The notes under the pieces were generated by a model that saw only the letters and a program-made list of their open reading frames with translations, ran no database searches and was not told where the DNA came from. A DNA stretch of 64,000 bases from an uncultured Micavibrio sp. (GTDB lineage Bacteria; Pseudomonadota; Alphaproteobacteria; Micavibrionales; Micavibrionaceae), in contig CAXBNJ010000008.1 of assembly GCA_963977125.1 (NCBI GenBank), forward strand, positions 4,020 through 68,019. The letters run 5' to 3'. Below are positions 41,472 to 52,009 of the stretch, piece by piece (within the stretch, counting starts at the first letter, position 1; the number at the start of each line of letters is the position of its first letter). Position numbers and translations under genes: made by a program.

Positions 41472-44198
41472 TTATTTCAGCGGCGCAATTAACCTAAAGA
41501 CCGTGCCTTTTTCTTGCGCTTCACAAACCAATGTTGCCCCTAACATATCCGCGCTTTTCTTCATCATATAAAGGCCCAGACCTGATCCAAAAGACACTTT
41601 GGGATGGAAGCGTTTAAACATAGAAAACAGATTCTTGCGATGTGCTTCGCCTATACCAAGGCCGTTATCTTCAACTTCAAAAACAAATACAGCATCATCA
41701 TTCCATGAACGAATGGCTAAATAAGGCTCGGCTTCATCGGGGTCTTGATATTTAATGGCATTCGAAATCAAGTTTTCAATGATTAGAACAAGTCTGTTTT
41801 TCTGCATTATAATATCTTCTGTCAGCTGAATATCTATATGCAGCTTGATCCGCTCATAACCCTCCATATGATCCATCTTAGAAATTGCTTCTTGGACAAG
41901 ATCCGCAACGTCAAGGCGCTGTATATCTTCGGCGACATTCTTGGTTTCTGTCAGTGATAAGATGTCCTGTACGAGTGTTTCAAGCTTCACAAGCGAATCC
42001 TTCACATGCGTTAAACACTTGCCTAGCTGGGGTTTATTATCGCTCTCAAGGGCTTTTTCTGCCATAGACAGAAGCGCAATGGACGACACGAGGGGGGAGC
42101 GTAAATCATGTGAGGTTCTATATGCAAATTCTTCCAATTCAGCATTCGATTCAGACAGTTTATCAATAAGCATTTCTTTTTCAGTCACATCGCGTGAAAT
42201 CCCCAATATGAAACGTTCGCCATCGGTTTGTTCAAAGCGAATTTTTTGCGTATATAATGTGCGTGTGAAGCCATCAGGAAACGTAATTGTCTCAACGGTT
42301 TCAGAATAACCCTCTTCAAAAGCTTTACGATCCATAGCAAAGAACTCTTCAGCTTCTTCATCTGAAAAGCCTTCTGACGTATATTTCCCAATTACAGAAT
42401 CCCGTTCATCTTTAGGGTACGCGTCTAAAAATGCTTTATTCGCCTCAATTAACTTTAATTTTTCATCTTTAACAAAAATAAAATCTGGGTTACTCGACAT
42501 AATCAGTTCCAAAAAAGTTTTGGAATCAGTTATTTCTTGTGTTTTCTCCTCCACTAAACGCTTGATAACATCTGTTCTGGCCGTCACGACCAACATAAAC
42601 AAGCTCGTAAACCCTGTGAAAAACAAACCACCAATCATGACAAACCAAAGAAGCCAGTTCTGCGTTGCCCCTTGATCTATATGCGGAATAAAATTCAACC
42701 GCCAAGATCGGCCCGCCACTTCAAAATCATGGAAAATTTGATTTTCTTGCTCTAGAATAGGAGCGCTCGCGGTCATTTCTTTATTGTCGGCCGTACGTGA
42801 ATCATAGAGCAGCACAGGGTGAGCGAAGCGCTCCCCTTCGACCTCCCCCCTATCAGATAGGATCAAATCAATACCGAGTTTTTTCGCTGCGTCATAAGTG
42901 CTCTCCATAAGAACAGGAAATGAAAAGACGCCATTACAATAGCCAATTAAAGCCGCGCGACGCTCATCAATACTTAAGTTTTCTATATCGGTATTATAAA
43001 CTGGATAATAAATAACAAAGCCATAAGAATCTTCGTCTTGAACAATCGATAGACGCTCAGTGGCTAGGGCTTTACCGCTATCACGCGCGGCATCTAAAAC
43101 GGGGTAACGCATCCGACCGGCCACAGGATCTGCGCTATAGACATCAAAGCCTTGCGCTTTATAACCGCGTTCATAGGGCTCGGTATAAGCAATTGGAAAA
43201 TAAACATCCTGCTTATCCATTTTTTGTAAAATACCAAAACTGGTACGCTGTTTAATTTCAAAATCAGAATAGCCTTGTTCTCTCATGCTCTGTACAAAAA
43301 ACTCACGATCTTTATCTTCCACTTTGGGAATCCATGACAGGCCATAAACGCCTTTATTTTTGGCGAAAAAATGCTTTGTAAAGAGCTGAAATTCTTCACC
43401 AGAGACATAGTCAGATGAAGAAATAAAGCGCTCATTCGCGGAAAGCGTTTCTTGCGATACTGTCAATTCCCTTTGTAGGTTTAAGAAAAGTTCAAAGGCC
43501 TGACTCTTAAAGTGACGAAGCTTTTGATTTTCGTCGTATAATTTAACCGTGTAAAAAGAGTAAATAACCGTACTAAATATGGTCAGAAGAACAAAAAAGA
43601 CGATAGATTTGCGCGCAGCGCTAATATAATAAAAAGTTGTTTTTGGCGCAAAAATGAGCAAGAGGACTGGTGTAAAAACAATGATGCCCAATGCATCGCC
43701 CAGCCACCAAACTAGGAAATGGGAGAACAAGGCTTCTTGCCCAACAAACCCTACCAAGAACAGCGTAAGCGTGCCCATTGCCGCGCCAATAAGACAAGAT
43801 AGCGTACCAAGGGAAATGATCTTAACGGAATCTTGAACCGATTCTAAAGCCGTTGGCAAAGTCATAAATTTTCGAATAATAGCCAATCCACAAAGCGCCT
43901 GCAGCGTTGCGCCAACTGCAATGGGCAGCGCAATCATTATCGCGCGGAGGTCGACAACCTCGTGATGATATAAAGACGTGCCCATCGCCCCAATAAGCAC
44001 GGCCGGCCAATAACGCCAACCGAGCAACAAAAGAGCCGCAAGCGCGATCCCTGCAGATGGCCAAATCGCCGCGGCCTGCCCTGGGGGAATAACCAGCAAT
44101 AAACTCAAACGTCCCGCCACATAATAACAAACGGCCAAAATCGCCACTTTTAACACATAGAGTAAAGAGCTTATATATACAGAGCGCGACATCATCAT
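41472..44198 (-). CDS. sensor histidine kinase, MASE1-CHASE-PAS-HisKA-HATPase architecture
   Basis: Eight N-terminal TM helices (MASE1-like), an extracytoplasmic ~230-aa CHASE-like segment, a further TM helix, PAS, the H-box FAYRTSHDLRSPL, and N/G boxes. No receiver domain. Confidence 0.8.
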   Translation of the reverse strand: MMMSRSVYISSLLYVLKVAILAVCYYVAGRLSLLLVIPPGQAAAIWPSAGIALAALLLLGWRYWPAVLIGAMGTSLYHHEVVDLRAIMIALPIAVGATLQALCGLAIIRKFMTLPTALESVQDSVKIISLGTLSCLIGAAMGTLTLFLVGFVGQEALFSHFLVWWLGDALGIIVFTPVLLLIFAPKTTFYYISAARKSIVFFVLLTIFSTVIYSFYTVKLYDENQKLRHFKSQAFELFLNLQRELTVSQETLSANERFISSSDYVSGEEFQLFTKHFFAKNKGVYGLSWIPKVEDKDREFFVQSMREQGYSDFEIKQRTSFGILQKMDKQDVYFPIAYTEPYERGYKAQGFDVYSADPVAGRMRYPVLDAARDSGKALATERLSIVQDEDSYGFVIYYPVYNTDIENLSIDERRAALIGYCNGVFSFPVLMESTYDAAKKLGIDLILSDRGEVEGERFAHPVLLYDSRTADNKEMTASAPILEQENQIFHDFEVAGRSWRLNFIPHIDQGATQNWLLWFVMIGGLFFTGFTSLFMLVVTARTDVIKRLVEEKTQEITDSKTFLELIMSSNPDFIFVKDEKLKLIEANKAFLDAYPKDERDSVIGKYTSEGFSDEEAEEFFAMDRKAFEEGYSETVETITFPDGFTRTLYTQKIRFEQTDGERFILGISRDVTEKEMLIDKLSESNAELEEFAYRTSHDLRSPLVSSIALLSMAEKALESDNKPQLGKCLTHVKDSLVKLETLVQDILSLTETKNVAEDIQRLDVADLVQEAISKMDHMEGYERIKLHIDIQLTEDIIMQKNRLVLIIENLISNAIKYQDPDEAEPYLAIRSWNDDAVFVFEVEDNGLGIGEAHRKNLFSMFKRFHPKVSFGSGLGLYMMKKSADMLGATLVCEAQEKGTVFRLIAPLK

Positions 44199-44389
44199 TT
44201 ATTACTTTACAGAGAAATACAAAAGAACAGGTCATTATTATAGCACAGCCAGAGGCGCTTTTAAACGAACTAAATATCCATGAGTACGATGCCTTCAATG
44301 GGCTTGATCAAGATCAAGGCTGCTGCCCCTCATAAATACTAACATGTGAAGAGATATAAAGCCTTAAATACGTTTATGGGGGTCTAATC

Positions 44390-45379
44390 ATGCCTATTCA
44401 AAAACAAAATATAATACCAGAAACACAGCCAGAACTGATACAAACACAAATGCTCAATAACCTTCTTGTGCAACTGCGCCAGCTGCTTGAGAAAAACGAA
44501 TCCGCCTTAGACGATGCGGGCGTACGCGAAGAAATAGATATTGTTTTAGACTGGGCTAAGCGCGCTGAAAAAGGCGACTTTGATGCCGAAGACATGTTAG
44601 AGCATGAAGGCTTTGCGCGGCTTAAATCAATTCAAAGTCGCCTGCAGCTAACAGCGCAAGAATATATGACTTTGGAAGATGAAAGCCCTGCTGAAAACCC
44701 ACATGCCAGTGCTGACCCGCAGGATATGTTCAATGCGCGCAATGATCTTGTAAACACCATCACAACCATTTTAAAATTAAAGACCCAAGATAATTGGCAA
44801 GATGCCACAGCTGATAATATTGCCTTACATGTAGATATTGTGCATGAAGCGGTTGGCGTTTTTGACAATGAGGAAAGCTTACAAGCCGCAATAGATGAAT
44901 TAGAAGAACGCGGCTTTATGCGCCAAGAATTAAGCATATTGGCCGATGATAAAACGGTAGAAGACAAGCTTGATCATGTGTATAAACGCGTCACTCATGC
45001 TCAAGATGATCCCGCTGCGCCGCGCACTATATTTATCCCTGATGAAACACGCGGCGATGCGCAAGGCGCCCTTATTGCGACGCCACTTTATATTGCGGCG
45101 ACCACAGCAAGCGCTGTAATTGTCGCTTCGGGCGGCACAATACTCAGTGCATTACTTGCCGCGAGCGCAGCGGGCGCTGTAGGCACGGCAATCGGCGCAG
45201 TCTTAGCGAATTTTGTGGCAAAACATCACGCTGATTATATTCTCTCACAGATAGAACGAGGCGGCCTGTTACTTTGGGTCAATTTACGCAGTCCAGAGCA
45301 AGCTGATTTAGCCATAGATATTCTCAATAAACATAGCGCCCATAATGTTCACACCCATAACATCCCTCTATATGGCTAG
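44390..45379 (+). CDS. hypothetical protein with Ala/Gly-rich membrane segment
   Basis: 329-aa ORF. Acidic helical N-terminal half, a segment VGVFDNEESLQAAIDELEERGF resembling YflT-type stress-protein domains, and a hydrophobic stretch at residues 245-285. Confidence 0.5.
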   Translation: MPIQKQNIIPETQPELIQTQMLNNLLVQLRQLLEKNESALDDAGVREEIDIVLDWAKRAEKGDFDAEDMLEHEGFARLKSIQSRLQLTAQEYMTLEDESPAENPHASADPQDMFNARNDLVNTITTILKLKTQDNWQDATADNIALHVDIVHEAVGVFDNEESLQAAIDELEERGFMRQELSILADDKTVEDKLDHVYKRVTHAQDDPAAPRTIFIPDETRGDAQGALIATPLYIAATTASAVIVASGGTILSALLAASAAGAVGTAIGAVLANFVAKHHADYILSQIERGGLLLWVNLRSPEQADLAIDILNKHSAHNVHTHNIPLYG

Positions 45380-45410
45380 GGGCTTAGTTTAGATCACCAG
45401 ACAAGCATGA

Positions 45411-45453
45411 AAACAAACAAAAAGGGACGCATTCACATGCGCCCCTTTTTTTT
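45411..45453. terminator. bidirectional rho-independent terminator
   Basis: GGGACGCAT / ATGCGCCCC stem (one mismatch) with an A-rich 5' flank and T8 downstream. Confidence 0.75.
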
Positions 45454-45494
45454 AATAATAATAAACCTCATCGTAAAACATAAAACCTAAAGCT

Positions 45495-47588
45495 TTACTC
45501 TGCTGCGCCTTCTTTATTCTTGCGCTTTGGCTTGCCTTTATCTTTATTGACTATTTTCTTCTTTTTCTTCTTTGGCTTGTCCTGTGGATGACCGCCCGCT
45601 GGGCTAAAGCCTTCACGTGTTTCGCGCTCCATGTCTTTTTTCTTAAACTTGCGCTTCACAGGCGCGCCAAATGGACCGATTTCGCGCGGTGCATCTGCAC
45701 CTTGCTTGTTATCGCGGTTATATTCAGAGGGCTTAGAAGATGGTTTAGACTCTTGGAAACGTCTGCCTTCAGGCTTAGAGCGCCCTTCAGATTTAAAGCC
45801 CCCTTCTGACTTGTTATAGCCACCAGATTTACCGCCATCACGTGAACCGCCATAAGATTTTGACCCCTCTTTTGACCCGCCGTAAGATTTCTTCTTATCG
45901 CCATATTTACCCGCTGGCTTACCACCACCGTTTGAACGACGTGGTGGACGGCTATCTCTGTCGCCACGTGGCGCTCTGCTTTCAGCCGGCGCGGCTGGCA
46001 CGCCTTCCATACGCGTGGCGACAACGTTATCTTCAACTTTGCCGCTTGGTCCGATCATTTCAAAGAATTTATCAACGCATTCTGGTGAAAGTTCAACATG
46101 TGTTTCTTTATCAAGAATGCGGATTGACCCGATTTGGCGCTTAGTCAATTGACCCGCGCTACACATCATCGGCATAATCCAGCGTGGCGCGGCGTTAACG
46201 TCATGCCCAACAGAAAGAGAAACCCACACACCATTTTTGAAGTTTTCTTGCTTCTTCTTCTTTTTATCAGAAGCATCTGCGCCAAGTAAGTCTTCTGGTG
46301 CTGGTTTTTGCGTATTATGCATACGTAATAAAGCTGCGGCAATTTGTTCAACGCCATAACGTTCAACAAGCTCAGCGGCGAAGGCTTTTTCTTCTTCTTT
46401 AACTGGTATGCTCAAGGCTGGGTCAGCCAAGAAGCGCTCACGATCACGCGCCATGACATCGTCAATAGAAGCCGGAGCACTCCAAACCGCATTAACATTG
46501 GCATTTTGGAGCATGCGATCCGTACGTGAACGTTGGTTATAAGGCACGATTAATGCACTTGTACCCTTACGACCGGCGCGGCCTGTACGGCCACTACGGT
46601 GCAATAAAAGGTCTTTGTTTTTTGGTAAATCGGCGTGAATAACCAATTCCAGCCCCGGTAAATCAATACCGCGCGCCGCAACATCTGTCGCAACGCAGAC
46701 TTTAGCGCGACCATCACGCAAAGATTGTAGCGCTTGGCTACGTTCATTTTGGCTCAGCTCACCCGATATGGACACAACCGAAAATCCCCGGTTATTCAAA
46801 CGGCTGGTTAAGTGGTTCACGGCTGCACGCGTACCACAGAACACAATCGCGTTTTTCGCTTCATGAAAGCGCAATGTATTGATGATCGCATTTTCGCGGT
46901 CACTCGGCGCAATAGTTAGCGCCTGATAGTCAATATCAATATGCTGTTCTTTTTCTTCCTTAGTCGTCACACGTACCGCATCTTTTTGATAGCGGCGCGC
47001 CAAAGACAGGATAGATTTCGGCACAGTCGCCGAGAACATCAAAGTACGGCGGCCTTCTGGCGCAGTACCCAAAATATATTCAAGCTCATCACGGAACCCC
47101 ATATCGAGCATTTCATCGGCTTCATCAAGCACAGCGACTTTCAAACCGCTTGTGTCAAAATAACCACGTTCAATATGATCACGCAGGCGCCCTGGCGTAC
47201 CAACAACAATATGGGGGCCTTTTTCCAAGGCGCGGCGCTCAGCGCGTATATCCATACCACCAACGCAAGAAATAACCCCAGCGCCACTAATTTGATACAG
47301 CCATTCCAACTCACGGCGAACTTGCAAAGCCAATTCACGCGTTGGCGCGATCACCAAAGCCAAAGGCTTGGCTGCCTTACCAAAAGATTGTTTGCCTTCA
47401 AATAAAGTCGCAGCCATCGCCAAACCAAAGGCTACGGTCTTACCAGAGCCTGTTTGTGCAGACACTAATAAATCAGCACTCTCAAGGTCATTACCCAAAA
47501 CGGCTTTTTGGACGGGCGTTAATTCTGTGTAGCCGCGCTTAGTTAAAGCTTGGCTCAGCGCAGGATAAACGCCATCAAATTCTGTCAT
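45495..47588 (-). CDS. DEAD-box RNA helicase with DbpA-type RNA-binding domain and Lys/Gly-rich tail
   Basis: AQTGSGKT, PTRELA, VLDEADEM, SAT and HRSGRTGRAG. A DbpA-like segment (WVSLSVGHDVNAAPRWIMPMMCSAGQLTKRQIGSIRI) is followed by ~165 aa of G/K/S/R low complexity. ATG 47588. The track start 47615 is a TTG. Confidence 0.88.
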   Translation of the reverse strand: MTEFDGVYPALSQALTKRGYTELTPVQKAVLGNDLESADLLVSAQTGSGKTVAFGLAMAATLFEGKQSFGKAAKPLALVIAPTRELALQVRRELEWLYQISGAGVISCVGGMDIRAERRALEKGPHIVVGTPGRLRDHIERGYFDTSGLKVAVLDEADEMLDMGFRDELEYILGTAPEGRRTLMFSATVPKSILSLARRYQKDAVRVTTKEEKEQHIDIDYQALTIAPSDRENAIINTLRFHEAKNAIVFCGTRAAVNHLTSRLNNRGFSVVSISGELSQNERSQALQSLRDGRAKVCVATDVAARGIDLPGLELVIHADLPKNKDLLLHRSGRTGRAGRKGTSALIVPYNQRSRTDRMLQNANVNAVWSAPASIDDVMARDRERFLADPALSIPVKEEEKAFAAELVERYGVEQIAAALLRMHNTQKPAPEDLLGADASDKKKKKQENFKNGVWVSLSVGHDVNAAPRWIMPMMCSAGQLTKRQIGSIRILDKETHVELSPECVDKFFEMIGPSGKVEDNVVATRMEGVPAAPAESRAPRGDRDSRPPRRSNGGGKPAGKYGDKKKSYGGSKEGSKSYGGSRDGGKSGGYNKSEGGFKSEGRSKPEGRRFQESKPSSKPSEYNRDNKQGADAPREIGPFGAPVKRKFKKKDMERETREGFSPAGGHPQDKPKKKKKKIVNKDKGKPKRKNKEGAAE

Positions 47589-47920
47589 AATTTTCTCTTT
47601 CGGGGTATGTCCCAAGGGTTTTTAAATCAATTTAAAATACTATGTACAGTGTAAATGCCCAAAGCACAACAACTGCGATGAAAATTGTGGATAATTTTTT
47701 TTAGCGTGAGGTGAGGACTAGACTCACTTTATCGCCGAAAACAGATCCAAAACCAAACGACAAAAGGACCGATCACACCCCTCATTTGCTATATCCCCAC
47801 CATCCCCCTTGCTGCACAGCCATGAATGCCGCATGATAGTGGGGGTATATTATCTATATCATCCCCTCTCTATATATTCTGAAATGTCTTGAAATATGTC
47901 CTGAACGGAGCCCCTTACTT

Positions 47921-49147
47921 ATGAGTATCATCACTATCACCAGTATTTTGGTTACTTTTTGTGCGCTATTTTCTTATATTAATTTTCGCTTTATCAAACT
48001 GCCAACGACGATCGGCATCATGGTTATGGCGCTGATTGCGGCGTCGTTCATTATCATGACACCGTTTTTAGGCATTGATATTTTAGAGTCCGCCCATGAT
48101 ATGATGAATGGCATAGATTTCTCTGAAGCGTTACTGCATGGCATGTTGAGTTTTCTGCTTTTTGCGGGGGCGTTGCATGTTAACTGGGGGCGGCTACGTG
48201 AACAAAAATACATTATTGGTTTTATGGCGTTAATCGGCACCGTGGTTTCAACCGCGTTGGTTGGTTTGATTGTCTATCATTTATTCCCTGTATTGGGCTT
48301 TGATATAGCGCTTATTCATGCGCTGCTCTTTGGCGCGCTGATCTCACCGACTGACCCCATCGCCGTTATGGCGATTTTGAAAAAAGCCGGCGTCGCAAAA
48401 TCATTAGAAACCAAAGTCGTCGGGGAATCATTATTTAACGATGGCATTGCGGTTGTAATCTTCATTGCGCTATTAGGCGTTGCGGCGCATGGCGAAGTCA
48501 GCGCCCCGCATATTGCGCTATTATTCGTCGAAGAAGCCCTTGGCGGCGCGCTGATCGGTGGCGTGCTTGGTTACATTGCTTTTTTAATGCTGCGTAGCGT
48601 TGATAATTACCAAGTCGAAATCTTCCTTACCCTTGCTTTGGTGATGGGCGGCTATGAACTTGCCAGATTCCTGCATACATCAGGGCCAATCGCCATGGTC
48701 GTGGCGGGGCTAATTGTTGGTAATGTCGGGCGCAGCCATGCTATGTCAGCGCATACCAAAGAAAACCTCGATAATTTTTGGGAGCTTATTGATGAATTTC
48801 TTAATGCGATTTTATTCTTACTTCTTGGCTTTAGCTTGCTGATTATCGAATTTGATAAAACCGCGCTTCAGGCAGGGCTTGTGATGATCCCGATTTTACT
48901 CTCTGTGCGCTATCTCTCCGTCGTGATTCCCATCACCTTCCTCAAACAATTCCGCAGCTTCAGCCCGGGCGCTGTGAATATGCTGACATGGGGCGGCCTG
49001 CGCGGCGGTATATCCGTAGCGCTTGTTTTATCGCTGCCTGCCAGTGAAGTGCGTGACTTCCTTTTGCTCGTCACCTATTGCATTGTGATGTTCTCGATCA
49101 TCATACAAGGTTTAAGCATTGGTAAATTAGCGCGGCATTATCAGTAA
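47921..49147 (+). CDS. Na+/H+ (cation:proton) antiporter, CPA1/NhaP-type
   Basis: About 12 TM helices with the signature LLFGALISPTDPIAV. 408 aa. Confidence 0.85.
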   Translation: MSIITITSILVTFCALFSYINFRFIKLPTTIGIMVMALIAASFIIMTPFLGIDILESAHDMMNGIDFSEALLHGMLSFLLFAGALHVNWGRLREQKYIIGFMALIGTVVSTALVGLIVYHLFPVLGFDIALIHALLFGALISPTDPIAVMAILKKAGVAKSLETKVVGESLFNDGIAVVIFIALLGVAAHGEVSAPHIALLFVEEALGGALIGGVLGYIAFLMLRSVDNYQVEIFLTLALVMGGYELARFLHTSGPIAMVVAGLIVGNVGRSHAMSAHTKENLDNFWELIDEFLNAILFLLLGFSLLIIEFDKTALQAGLVMIPILLSVRYLSVVIPITFLKQFRSFSPGAVNMLTWGGLRGGISVALVLSLPASEVRDFLLLVTYCIVMFSIIIQGLSIGKLARHYQ

Positions 49148-49273
49148 AGCCGGTCAAATACTCCATTTGGGCCGCCACACAACCGCATGAAAGCGGCGCC
49201 ATAATTGACCCAGCCTCACTACGGCGTATACTTAAATTATGCGCTCTAAGACACAATAAAACAGGAGAAATTC

Positions 49274-49666
49274 ATGGAATACGCAATCGCTTTAATGACC
49301 GGGCTGACTTTATTTATAATAGGGCTTTCTTGCACCTTGCGTGCAAAAGACTGGTCCGCGTGGCTTGGAACCCTCCGTGGCAAAGAATCCTTTCATGCCC
49401 TGCCCATTGGCGCATTTGAAGTCGCTTTTTGCGCACTTTTATTATCCCTACACCAAGTGTGGAGCGGTCCTTTTGTGCTTGTCTCGTTAATTTGGTTTCT
49501 CGGTATAATTGAAGGCACGCTCTATTTATTATACCCCGCAGCTTTAAGCAAAGTTATTGGCTTATTCATGCCCAATTGTTTAAAAATATTACCCGTCTTC
49601 GGTATAATAATCACAGCTTTAGGGGGATTCATTTTATATCAATCCTGGCTTATCGGAGCGATATAA
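49274..49666 (+). CDS. hypothetical 4-TM membrane protein
   Basis: 130-aa hydrophobic ORF with a GGAGA RBS. Its 3' end overlaps the convergent ORF 49639-50001 by 28 nt. Confidence 0.5.
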   Translation: MEYAIALMTGLTLFIIGLSCTLRAKDWSAWLGTLRGKESFHALPIGAFEVAFCALLLSLHQVWSGPFVLVSLIWFLGIIEGTLYLLYPAALSKVIGLFMPNCLKILPVFGIIITALGGFILYQSWLIGAI

Positions 49667-50001
49667 GCTGATGATGAACTATCTAGATTTTCGCTAATCG
49701 CCTCAAGCGGTATGCTGAGCCTCTGGCTGACTATATCTAACGGCAATGGGGAGTCTTTCACCAGATAACCGTTATTCAGCAAAAACACCAGATATTGCTT
49801 ATTATAAACCACCATTTGCAATAAAGCCGATAAGCCTAATGTCAGGATAAATGCCAAAAGCCAAAAAAGCGCCGCGGAATAATGCCCACGGAAAAGCGGG
49901 ACCAGAGGCCCCAATAAAGCCGAACTCAAAGAAAGCCCAATCGGCGCTTTTTTATACTCATCAAAGCTCGGATATTGCATCATTAGCGTGGTGTAGGCCA
50001 T
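49639..50001 (-). CDS. hypothetical 2-TM membrane protein
   Basis: 120 aa with two hydrophobic helices (LSSALLGPLVPLF, FWLLAFILTLGLSALLQMVV). Confidence 0.45.
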   Translation of the reverse strand: MAYTTLMMQYPSFDEYKKAPIGLSLSSALLGPLVPLFRGHYSAALFWLLAFILTLGLSALLQMVVYNKQYLVFLLNNGYLVKDSPLPLDIVSQRLSIPLEAISENLDSSSSAYIAPISQD

Positions 50002-50288
50002 ATTGAGGGTCTTTCATGGGTCGGGGAATGTTGTAAGGTTTCCAATTTATACCGCCTTAAAGAAGGTAATGACGCTTAATAGATCCAATTCAGCCGTTCC
50101 ATCATACGAAGAAAAGCTATATCTTGCAAATGTGTCTCACTTTCTTATGGCTTATTGGTTTTACAAAAACGGCACAATGTTCTTACTAAAAGAACTAAAA
50201 AAGTTCATTATAGGGATTCACAACTTGAAATATTTGTGATTCAATACATTTGGTAACAAAAGTATTAACTAAATTTTCATGTTTTGCA

Positions 50289-50316
50289 TTGACACTTAAC
50301 ATATTATCTATATACA
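50289..50316 (+). promoter_or_regulatory. sigma70-like promoter of the Panacea pair
   Basis: TTGACA (50289-50294), 16 nt, TATACA (50311-50316), 37 nt upstream of ATG 50353. Confidence 0.45.
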
Positions 50317-50352
50317 GCCATAGGTTTATCAATGTTGAGTTAGGATAACACA

Positions 50353-50799
50353 ATGATAAAAGTACTGAGTGTAGCATCATATATATTAGAGAACTTCGGG
50401 CCCATGACAGCGATGAAGCTTCAAAAGCTTGTGTACTATTCGCAAGCTTGGCATTGTGTCTGGGAAGAGGCAGATCTCTTTGATAGTGAAATACAAGCGT
50501 GGGCAAACGGACCTGTAATTATAGACCTATATAAACACCACGCGGGAGAATTTATGCTCTCACCAGATAAACTCTCAGGCACTGATTATCCAGATTTATC
50601 ATCAGCGGAAACGGAAAGTATAAACGCTGTTTGTGAACACTACAGTAAGTTCACAGCCCAACAGCTTAGTGACAAAACCCATAATGAGGCTCCTTGGATA
50701 AAAGCTAGAGAAGGGCTTGAGGATGGAGATCGCTCTGCTGCCCCAATAACATTGGCATCCATGCACCAGTATTATAGCGGGCTATCTAGTGTATCTTAA
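50353..50799 (+). CDS. Panacea-domain (DUF4065, SocA-like) antitoxin candidate
   Basis: Diagnostic N-terminal pattern MTAMKLQKLVYYSQAW.....ADLFDSEIQAWANGPVIIDLY. 148 aa. Confidence 0.8.
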   Translation: MIKVLSVASYILENFGPMTAMKLQKLVYYSQAWHCVWEEADLFDSEIQAWANGPVIIDLYKHHAGEFMLSPDKLSGTDYPDLSSAETESINAVCEHYSKFTAQQLSDKTHNEAPWIKAREGLEDGDRSAAPITLASMHQYYSGLSSVS

Positions 50800-50827
50800 T
50801 ACGTACAAGTGCTGAGAGGCCCTTCCT

Positions 50828-51304
50828 ATGCGGAAATCTAGTAAAAAAAGCAAAAAAAAGAGAATCATAGATAATCGACCTGCTTCTAATGAGAAAACAG
50901 TACATGACCGCAGCGAAGCCACCAACTATAAAAACAGATACGTAAAATTCTCCACTCTGCACCACGACAAAGACGGTGAGTGGGGGTGGGAGAGCATATG
51001 CGGACACACGTTCCTCAAAGACCTGTTTGACAAAATATATAATGATTACAGCTCTATGAAATATTCAGAACTAATAGATCCCAAAAAAAACTCTCATGCC
51101 GTGTCATTCGATGCTAAAGGCTTACATAAAAATGCAATTAAAAGATTATCAGATCTGAAACTAATTGATCATTTTGATGAACTCATTACCATTAGGGTTA
51201 CAGGAAAAAAGAGATTGTGGTGCCTGCATAATGAGCATGTACTTCATATGCTTTGGTGGGATCCTGACCATAAAATATACCCATCACACAAGAAAAACAC
51301 ATAA
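50828..51304 (+). CDS. unrecognised 158-aa basic protein; putative Panacea-associated toxin
   Basis: Starts 28 nt after the Panacea gene with a GAGAGG RBS. Lys-rich N-terminus, and a C-terminus ITIRVTGKKRLWCLHNEHVLHMLWWDPDHKIYPS. No family recognised with confidence. Confidence 0.6.
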   Translation: MRKSSKKSKKKRIIDNRPASNEKTVHDRSEATNYKNRYVKFSTLHHDKDGEWGWESICGHTFLKDLFDKIYNDYSSMKYSELIDPKKNSHAVSFDAKGLHKNAIKRLSDLKLIDHFDELITIRVTGKKRLWCLHNEHVLHMLWWDPDHKIYPSHKKNT

Positions 51305-51318
51305 GCAGTATAATTAAA

Positions 51319-51408
51319 TGGCGGAGACGGTGGGATTCGAACCCACGTAGGGTGTGAACCCTAACACGCTTTCCAAGCGTGCGCCTTAAGCCACTCGGCC
51401 ACGTCTCC
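51319..51408 (-). tRNA. tRNA-Ser (anticodon GGA), CCA encoded
   Basis: Folded by hand. Acceptor GGAGACG/CGTCTCC, anticodon stem CACGC/GCGTG with loop TTGGAAA, an 18-nt variable arm, T arm GTGGG-TTCGAAT-CCCAC, discriminator G, and CCA. 90 nt. Confidence 0.92.
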
Positions 51409-51601
51409 GTTTATAGTCATCGGCTAGTTTGAGGGCGTAAATTAACCTGTCTTTTGGACAAAGGCAAGTCTTAACTTACCCCGCTTTCTTATATGACCAT
51501 CACAGCATAAGAACATTCTAATATTTACCCTTGTTTAATATATTAGTGTTATTGTATATAGTATAGTTCATCCATAACGGGGGTAGATATAGGGTTTTAT
51601 A

Positions 51602-52009
51602 ATGAAGTTTTTTGTTTATTTTATTTTCGCAATTTCGCCGCTCGTTGCGACTATTCTTCATGATGTCCTTATGGATCACGGTAAAGCGTCTCTGTTCTTA
51701 CCTTTGGGCTATTATATTTACAATTACCTACCCGATTTTTTCAACATCATACGCTCAACATTTATTGATAGTGACTTGCGCGTCTTTGTCTCTATTTTAA
51801 TGAAAACGCCTCTCCTCGTCTATTCTGGGCTGTTCTCGCTAAGTGTTAGCGGGTTTCTTGTTCATTGCTATTTGAACAATAGTGGCCCTTTTAGAGATTA
51901 CCTTGAGGGCATTCCGCAGCTTGAAAAAAAGTGGCTGACCAAAGACAAGCTCAATGCTCGTTTCAGCGGCACAAAAACACCCCCTGCCAAAAATACCCAA
52001 AAAAAATGA
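51602..52009 (+). CDS. hypothetical 4-TM membrane protein
   Basis: 135-aa hydrophobic ORF with a basic C-terminal tail. Confidence 0.45.
   Translation: MKFFVYFIFAISPLVATILHDVLMDHGKASLFLPLGYYIYNYLPDFFNIIRSTFIDSDLRVFVSILMKTPLLVYSGLFSLSVSGFLVHCYLNNSGPFRDYLEGIPQLEKKWLTKDKLNARFSGTKTPPAKNTQKK

Follow-up and report, generated by a model that had tools for sequence, protein, structure and literature searches.

Genetic organization of the panAT locus

The 64,000-nucleotide stretch of DNA from an uncultured Micavibrio sp. analyzed in this study (hereafter, the window) carries two adjacent genes, panA and panT, which encode a stand-alone Panacea (DUF4065/SocA-like) protein and a putative toxin, respectively, and which lie next to the 3' end of a tRNA-Ser(GGA) gene (Table 1). 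The two genes probably form a PanAT module of the type of the published cluster T1, in which an RNase toxin of the BECR fold would be held in check by the stand-alone Panacea protein.

Both genes are genuine, as judged by the many homologs of each and by start codons that match the starts of the homologs. The original prediction, made from the sequence alone, had placed the start of panT 28 nt downstream of the panA stop codon and the panT stop codon 14 nt from the CCA end of the tRNA, and all its coordinates hold. It had also recognized the panA product as a Panacea/SocA protein, which is borne out by the match to Pfam PF13274 SocA_Panacea (E=1e-19; 72 bits at a cutoff of 25.7) and by a full-length match to phrog_1281 (E=2.8e-36). 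The C-terminal tail of PanA is conserved (R119, I132, Y140, and Y141), and PADLOC returned no match for this protein. The Panacea domain scores above the Pfam gathering threshold, and the window pair, with its 28-nt gap and the conserved linkage described below, would also count as a predicted PanAT system under the criterion of Kurata et al. (2022; PNAS, PMC8832971). The pair had been described as AT-rich by eye, which is modestly so (38.5% G+C compared to 44.3% in the window, placing it in the lowest 1.6% of 1.1-kb segments), but its third-codon-position G+C content is no outlier.

The pair appears to be transcribed as a bicistron from its own promoter. The promoter-like sequence TTGACA-16-TATACA, to which this role had been assigned, is indeed present upstream of panA, and TTGACA-17-TATACA occupies the equivalent position upstream of panA in the only diverged homologous locus (L090; ENA ERZ23496902, SATO17-1 scaffold_26). 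However, the window sequence was missed by a consensus promoter scan, its second hexamer being without the final T, and the scan yields promoter-like matches no more often than chance in this AT-rich stretch (7 observed, 6.6 expected). Based on two sequences, those of the window and L090, an own promoter of panAT is plausible. Homology between the two loci begins about 140 bp upstream of panA, at the conserved blocks AGGGATTC and TGTGATTCAATA, and this region, located upstream of the promoter-like sequence, contains the inverted repeat TCACAA-N10-TTGTGA (50218-50239). The blocks may represent an operator or the left-over edge of an integrative island such as that described below for L090; stand-alone Panacea proteins are not known to have a DNA-binding domain.

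Another inverted repeat, of 26 nt (22 of 26 positions complementary; 50187-50212 and 51598-51623), brackets panAT together with the tRNA gene and was considered as an element boundary. This candidate was rejected as being at chance level, with 2 of 15 dinucleotide shuffles reaching it; its right arm coincides with the beginning of orf135, where the coding sequence is rich in T. The 14 nt between the panT stop codon and the convergent tRNA gene (51305-51318) contain no terminator-like structure, and therefore read-through from panAT would yield RNA antisense to tRNA-Ser(GGA).

Table 1. Positions of the panAT genes and associated features in the window.
Feature	Position	Strand	Evidence
panA, stand-alone Panacea (DUF4065/SocA-like) protein, 148 aa, without N-terminal accessory domain	50353-50799	+	Pfam PF13274, phrog_1281
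panT, putative toxin, 158 aa	50828-51304	+	HMMER family, conservation alignment, AlphaFold2, Foldseek, NsnC, T1 homology
Ribosome-binding site GAGAGG, 8 nt 5' of the toxin ATG	50814-50819	+	Sequence
tRNA-Ser(GGA), CCA encoded, 3' end toward panT	51319-51408	-	ARAGORN; Rfam RF00005 (61.4 bits)
Promoter-like TTGACA-16-TATACA, 5' of panA	50289-50316	+	Sequence; L090 counterpart
Conserved blocks AGGGATTC (50212-50219) and TGTGATTCAATA (50235-50246)	50212-50246	+	Window/L090 pairwise DNA alignment
Variable segment, from the conserved sensor histidine kinase gene (41472-44198) to the tRNA 3' end	44199-51318		tblastn synteny with L091 and L093

A widespread toxin family linked to Panacea

The 158-aa product of panT had been presented in the original prediction as an unrecognized protein. 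A word-indexed protein search using the toxin alone returned two proteins, the identical one and the homolog of 53% identity encoded by L090, which would suggest an orphan family. This was overturned by an exhaustive HMMER search with these two sequences as the query, which identified 1,361 representatives of 50%-identity clusters at E<=0.001, including 251 at E<=1e-10. When one genome of each GTDB species was scanned by pattern, 559 loci of the toxin family were found, spanning cyanobacteria, Poribacteria, Desulfobacterota, Chlamydiota, Planctomycetota, Alphaproteobacteria, and other groups. tblastn searches with the toxins gave one hit in the phage collection and one in the plasmid collection, and therefore BLAST-level searches badly under-report this family.

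Members of the family are all about 150 aa long and annotated as 'hypothetical', and no Pfam model describes them. Among 61 relatives, 55 weakly match NCBIfam NF046006 ('MAG6450 family protein') over the C-terminal core (best E=4.8e-9), and 59 match PHROG phrog_8366 over the full length (best E=5.5e-17); the window toxin reaches 16.1 bits (E=0.013) against NF046006, under the curated cutoff of 40 bits. Both are families without known function, MAG6450 itself being only a 'conserved hypothetical protein' of Mycoplasma agalactiae. Two other hits of the window toxin were discarded as noise, namely Pfam FGF (E=0.018), common to none of the 61 relatives, and PADLOC PDC-M22A (E=2e-4), common to one of them.

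In the 80 best genomic loci, the toxin homolog nearly always directly follows a same-strand open reading frame of 145-240 aa, separated by a gap of a few nucleotides, and 71 of 75 such upstream reading frames encode Pfam Panacea proteins. When hidden Markov models of both families were used, a same-strand Panacea gene was found directly upstream of 82 of 85 toxin copies in named genomes from many phyla, so that, together with the Panacea domain itself, both the predicted PanAT-type two-gene module and the expected linkage of the toxin homologs to Panacea are supported. The window PanA is 40-50% identical to most upstream partners of toxin homologs from other phyla, and the pairwise identity matrices of PanA and PanT are correlated (Mantel r=0.57, a value reached in 0 of 2000 permutations); this correlation and the linkage argue that panA and panT travel as a unit. 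A copy on a Rhizobium plasmid is annotated in RefSeq as a 'SocA domain-containing antitoxin' followed by a 'hypothetical protein'. Toxin homologs lacking a recognizable upstream Panacea gene were observed in two metagenome-assembled genomes of Hyphomicrobiales (L055:2839-3321 and L059:2869-3321); these could reflect partner swapping, an orphan toxin, or decay.

Relationship to PanT cluster T1

Kurata et al. (2022) predicted 1,268 PanAT pairs with 88 toxin clusters, among which cluster T1 stands first in the list of Dataset S1, occupying the first five-plus parts of the stored sheet, that is, roughly 160 rows (an estimate, the counts of the other clusters not having been compared). Like the window pair, T1 systems begin with a gene encoding a stand-alone Panacea protein, followed after a few nucleotides by a gene encoding a toxin of about 150 aa annotated as 'hypothetical'; for three assayed T1 toxins, SI Table S1 of the same study gives 'mRNase' as the predicted label.

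A direct link is provided by the T1 pair of Salmonella phage vB_SemP_Emek, which corresponds to orf149 and orf161 at L089:14764-15637. The Emek toxin YP_006560566 (orf161, L089:15152-15634) was matched to the toxin family profile both by hhalign (97.1% probability, E=6.7e-11, 110 columns) and by hmmsearch (E=4.5e-10), and the Emek PanA shares 33% identity with the window PanA. Taxa common to the window toxin family and the T1 list include cyanobacteria, Rhodobacteraceae, Rhizobium, and Fibrobacter, among others. Judged by sequence, the putative window toxin falls into one homologous group with PanT cluster T1 and is a further member of the Panacea-partnered group catalogued in 2022 and not the new PanT family for which it had been put forward; nor can it be called unrecognized, given its 1,361 cluster representatives, its 559 GTDB loci, and its homology to a T1 toxin labeled 'mRNase'.

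Differences within the group are nevertheless evident. The window subfamily retains the WWDPxH and KKHT motifs, in contrast to the T1 member from Emek, and the window pair is a probable chromosomal remnant adjoining a tRNA gene in an uncultured marine bacterium. In the genome of Emek, a P22-like phage, the pair is flanked by the injection-protein genes on one side and by the mnt/arc immunity region on the other.

Predicted fold and candidate catalytic residues of the toxin

The AlphaFold2 model of the toxin, based on a 37-sequence alignment, has a pLDDT of 88.6 and a pTM of 0.74, compared to a pLDDT of only 39 when a 2-sequence alignment was used. Residues 1-35 form a basic, low-confidence tail, and the core (residues about 36-158) is predicted to have a beta-alpha-alpha-beta-beta-beta order, with a short strand, helices 54-57, 60-74, and 79-82, strand 90-93, helix 101-109, and three strands within residues 118-145. 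In a Foldseek comparison with PDB, about 36 of the top 50 hits were toxins of the RelE superfamily (HP0894, YafQ, RelE, YoeB, HigB, ParE2, and GraT), with alignments of 90-120 columns and a target-normalized TM-score of up to 0.57, and the other top-50 hits were short Arf GTPase fragments; a comparison with viral structures gave nothing significant. The loose resemblance of the C-terminus to RelE/ParE toxins pointed out in the original prediction, which had proposed a Foldseek search, is thus in agreement with a list dominated by this superfamily and in which RelE, YafQ, YoeB, and HigB give the long matches, all of them under the significance level.

The mRNA interferases RelE, YafQ, YoeB, and HigB represent the sole fold recurring with long alignments in this list, and they share with the window toxin, as modeled, a small alpha/beta core built on an antiparallel sheet of three to four strands and a histidine located near the C-terminus, after the last strand. 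In contrast, no sequence similarity to them is detectable, and the window toxin is about 60 residues longer, owing to its basic disordered tail and an extra N-terminal hairpin with D47...G-x-W-G-W. The antitoxins also differ, the classical RelE-type systems using RelB, DinJ, YefM, or HigA instead of Panacea.

Six residues of the toxin, D47, H90, R106, R129, D145, and H148, are near-invariant; in an alignment of 152 representatives, R129 and H148 are each retained in 151, D145 in 150, R106 in 147, and H90 in 140. The C-terminal motif of the family reads WWDPxHxVxPSxKKHT. A His-Arg-His-Asp set is typical of acid-base RNA cleavage, and ParE toxins are not known to have such a catalytic set.

A sequence link to an RNase domain was found through NsnC, which is the Menshen defense effector and whose PADLOC model is matched by 43 of the 61 relatives (best E=3.3e-9), in all seven members checked within profile positions about 156-280 of 284. 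The C-terminal NsnC domain has been described as PB-BECR1, an RNase domain that resembles YafQ and bears an H-R-H triad (Li et al., 2025; NAR, PMC12065111). NsnC and the window family have in common a conserved His-Arg-His set and a YafQ-like appearance in structure comparison, whereas the N-terminal domain of NsnC, an inactive PIN domain, has no counterpart in the 158-aa window toxin. The gene context differs too, since Menshen comprises genes encoding NsnA (ParB-DUF262) and NsnB (ABC ATPase), while panT has a Panacea gene and a tRNA gene as neighbors and no ParB or ATPase gene. From the Foldseek list, the NsnC matches, and the residue conservation, we infer that the toxin is an RNA-cleaving protein of the BECR fold with H90, R129, and H148 as a candidate catalytic set.

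Genomic setting and mobile origin

No integrase is present among the flanking genes according to Pfam, as had been noted before, and the tRNA end, searched for as 16 or 25 nt with up to 3 mismatches allowed, does not recur anywhere in the window. The metagenomic scaffold L090 carries the homologous pair within a P4-like integrative island, 13.75 kb long and intact, at tRNA-Ser(GGA) (L090:230-13994), which comprises, in order, genes for a P4-type integrase, AlpA, a Toprim primase, DUF3631, several small genes, PanA, PanT, and a 978-aa protein, and which is bounded by a 16-nt direct repeat, TGGCGGAGAGGACAGG, identical to the tRNA 3' end. On the right-hand side, L090 and the window share synteny comprising tRNA-Ser(GGA), an alpha/beta hydrolase, GT4 and GT9 glycosyltransferases, and an HTH_5 regulator. 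The L090 island thus retains the integrase and the att repeat, whereas just the pair is left in the window, together with about 140 bp upstream of it; most simply, the window pair is a remnant of a P4-like island.

A metagenome scan using the flanking hydrolase yielded 80 related loci, none of which encodes PanA or PanT; the same tRNA lies beside the hydrolase in 17 of the 34 longest loci checked. Gene conservation in the closest relatives (65-67% identity) extends over the hydrolase side; past the tRNA 3' end, the content varies from genome to genome, the synteny break falling exactly at the tRNA 3' end. The distance from the tRNA to the next conserved gene, which encodes a sensor histidine kinase, is 7.1 kb in the window compared to 1.3-1.9 kb in the closest relatives, and panAT constitutes the tRNA-proximal end of this variable segment. 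The absence from the 80 loci and the synteny break therefore identify the pair, from comparison of sequences, as accessory cargo at a variable tRNA hotspot. This accords with the earlier view of the locus as accessory DNA at a tRNA integration site, for which L090 provides an occupied example, and shows that the locus is not invariant core genome.

Besides panAT, the variable segment contains a YflT-like gene, genes for a DEAD-box RNA helicase and a Na+/H+ exchanger, and two small unknown open reading frames. These are probably older insertions or rearrangements, since their G+C content is typical of the genome. The 978-aa protein of the L090 island matched no family except for a weak hit to a type II restriction enzyme (E=0.0017), and PADLOC returned nothing credible for the neighboring genes in the window or for the other genes of the L090 island.

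Proposed function and alternative explanations

We propose that panA and panT constitute a type II toxin-antitoxin module of the PanAT type. The toxin most likely cuts RNA by means of the near-invariant H90, R129, and H148, with D145 helping, so that the free toxin would arrest translation. PanA most likely holds the toxin inactive through direct binding, as suggested by the validated stand-alone PanA proteins (Ernits et al., 2023). A P4-like integrative island would have brought the module to the 3' end of tRNA-Ser(GGA), after which the island would have been lost around it in the window lineage, leaving neither integrase nor att repeat, and would have stayed intact in one relative. Survival of the pair as a remnant is the behavior expected of an addiction module.

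Several observations weigh against this proposal. In the assays reported for cluster T1, the toxin of Clostridium cadaveris was toxic in Escherichia coli and was not neutralized by its own PanA, and the toxins of E. coli MOD1 and Salmonella phage Emek were non-toxic in E. coli (Kurata et al., 2022); therefore, the T1 group contains no member validated as a toxin-antitoxin pair. T1 is also heterogeneous, the Emek toxin having WLDREF at the position of the family motif WWDPxH, and loss of this motif may be the reason for its reported non-toxicity. That the published cluster includes the window's own subfamily is deduced from homology and overlapping taxa, not from an accession in Dataset S1. With regard to the fold, the Foldseek comparison with PDB gave nothing at E<=0.001 (best E=0.12, probability 0.8), sequence searches of PDB returned nothing relevant for the single toxin or for the family profile, and hhalign against E. 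coli YafQ gave nothing. The window toxin itself, unlike its relatives, does not match the NsnC model at E<0.01, and the candidate set of H90, R129, and H148 was picked by conservation, not by position in the model.

Pairing of Panacea with many toxins is already established, and mRNA cleavage has already been predicted for this toxin group; the group, first in the list of Dataset S1, nonetheless has no Pfam family, is annotated as 'hypothetical', and has no validated member. What is gained here is a confident structural model, a candidate catalytic set (H90, R129, D145, and H148), and a connection, by sequence, with the Menshen effector's RNase domain, which together make mutational and biochemical tests straightforward. 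In addition, the intact 13.75-kb island and the bare remnant at the same tRNA offer a clean case from nature in which a toxin-antitoxin pair has outlived its mobile element.

The pair may instead serve primarily as an anti-phage abortive-infection module, with Panacea sensing a phage cue and then releasing or activating the RNase. This explanation, compatible with the molecular picture given above, is possible, and we hold it tentatively. The core of the toxin shares homology with the Menshen effector domain, homologs occur in phages (as indicated by the phrog_8366 matches of 59 of 61 relatives and by the Emek pair), and the behavior of T1 proteins in plain E. coli assays, that is, non-toxicity or lack of rescue, would fit a trigger-dependent system. 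Moreover, the L090 pair is cargo of a P4-like integrative element, and such elements are reportedly carriers of defense genes. On the other hand, a defense phenotype has been reported for no member, PADLOC gave nothing for PanA and just the weak candidate PDC-M22A for the toxin, and no further recognizable defense gene adjoins the pair in the window. A sensory role of Panacea is favored by Ernits et al. (2023), but their argument concerns multidomain PanA proteins, and the stand-alone Panacea proteins in their study neutralized toxins directly.

A bolder form of this explanation, which we consider rather unlikely, holds that T1-type PanAT is a minimal trigger-dependent anti-phage module whose RNase effector is the same evolutionary unit as Menshen PB-BECR1. 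If so, one toxic domain would operate under either a ParB-ATPase sensor-transducer pair or a single Panacea sensor, and T1 systems would fail to act as classical toxin-antitoxin pairs in E. coli because a phage cue is required. The terms Panacea, DUF4065, and SocA do not occur in PMC12065111 or in the 2026 BECR preprint, and the link between Panacea and NsnC is thus not mentioned in either.

It is improbable, in our view, that the downstream protein is no toxin in this lineage but a BECR-like protein that is non-toxic or has been domesticated, or else a regulator, traveling with Panacea, in which case the pair would be no toxin-antitoxin system. Such a role would agree with the non-toxicity of two of the three assayed T1 proteins, the lack of rescue of the toxic one, and the missing experimental validation of any T1 pair. 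However, the near-invariance of H90, R106, R129, D145, and H148 among the 152 diverse representatives argues for a conserved active site, and WWDPxH, lost in the non-toxic Emek protein, is present in the window protein. The strict antitoxin-first order in 82 of 85 loci from many phyla and the persistence of the pair after loss of the rest of the island, as would be expected of an addictive module, also speak for a toxin.

Poisoning of DNA gyrase in the manner of ParE, without RNA cleavage, is very unlikely: ParE2 chains occur among the weak Foldseek hits and the fold alone cannot tell RNase from gyrase activity (PMC10440598), but the longer and higher-ranked structural matches are the RNases HP0894, YafQ, YoeB, and HigB, the sequence link leads to NsnC PB-BECR1, a predicted RNase, and the invariant His-Arg-His-Asp set is present in the toxin family.

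Other observations in the window

Away from panAT, an 878-aa protein encoded on the minus strand (27323-29959) partially matches the model of MzaA, the sigma factor of the MZA anti-phage system. Its score of 81 bits lies far below the cutoff of 800, and therefore the match probably reflects just a sigma-70 domain.

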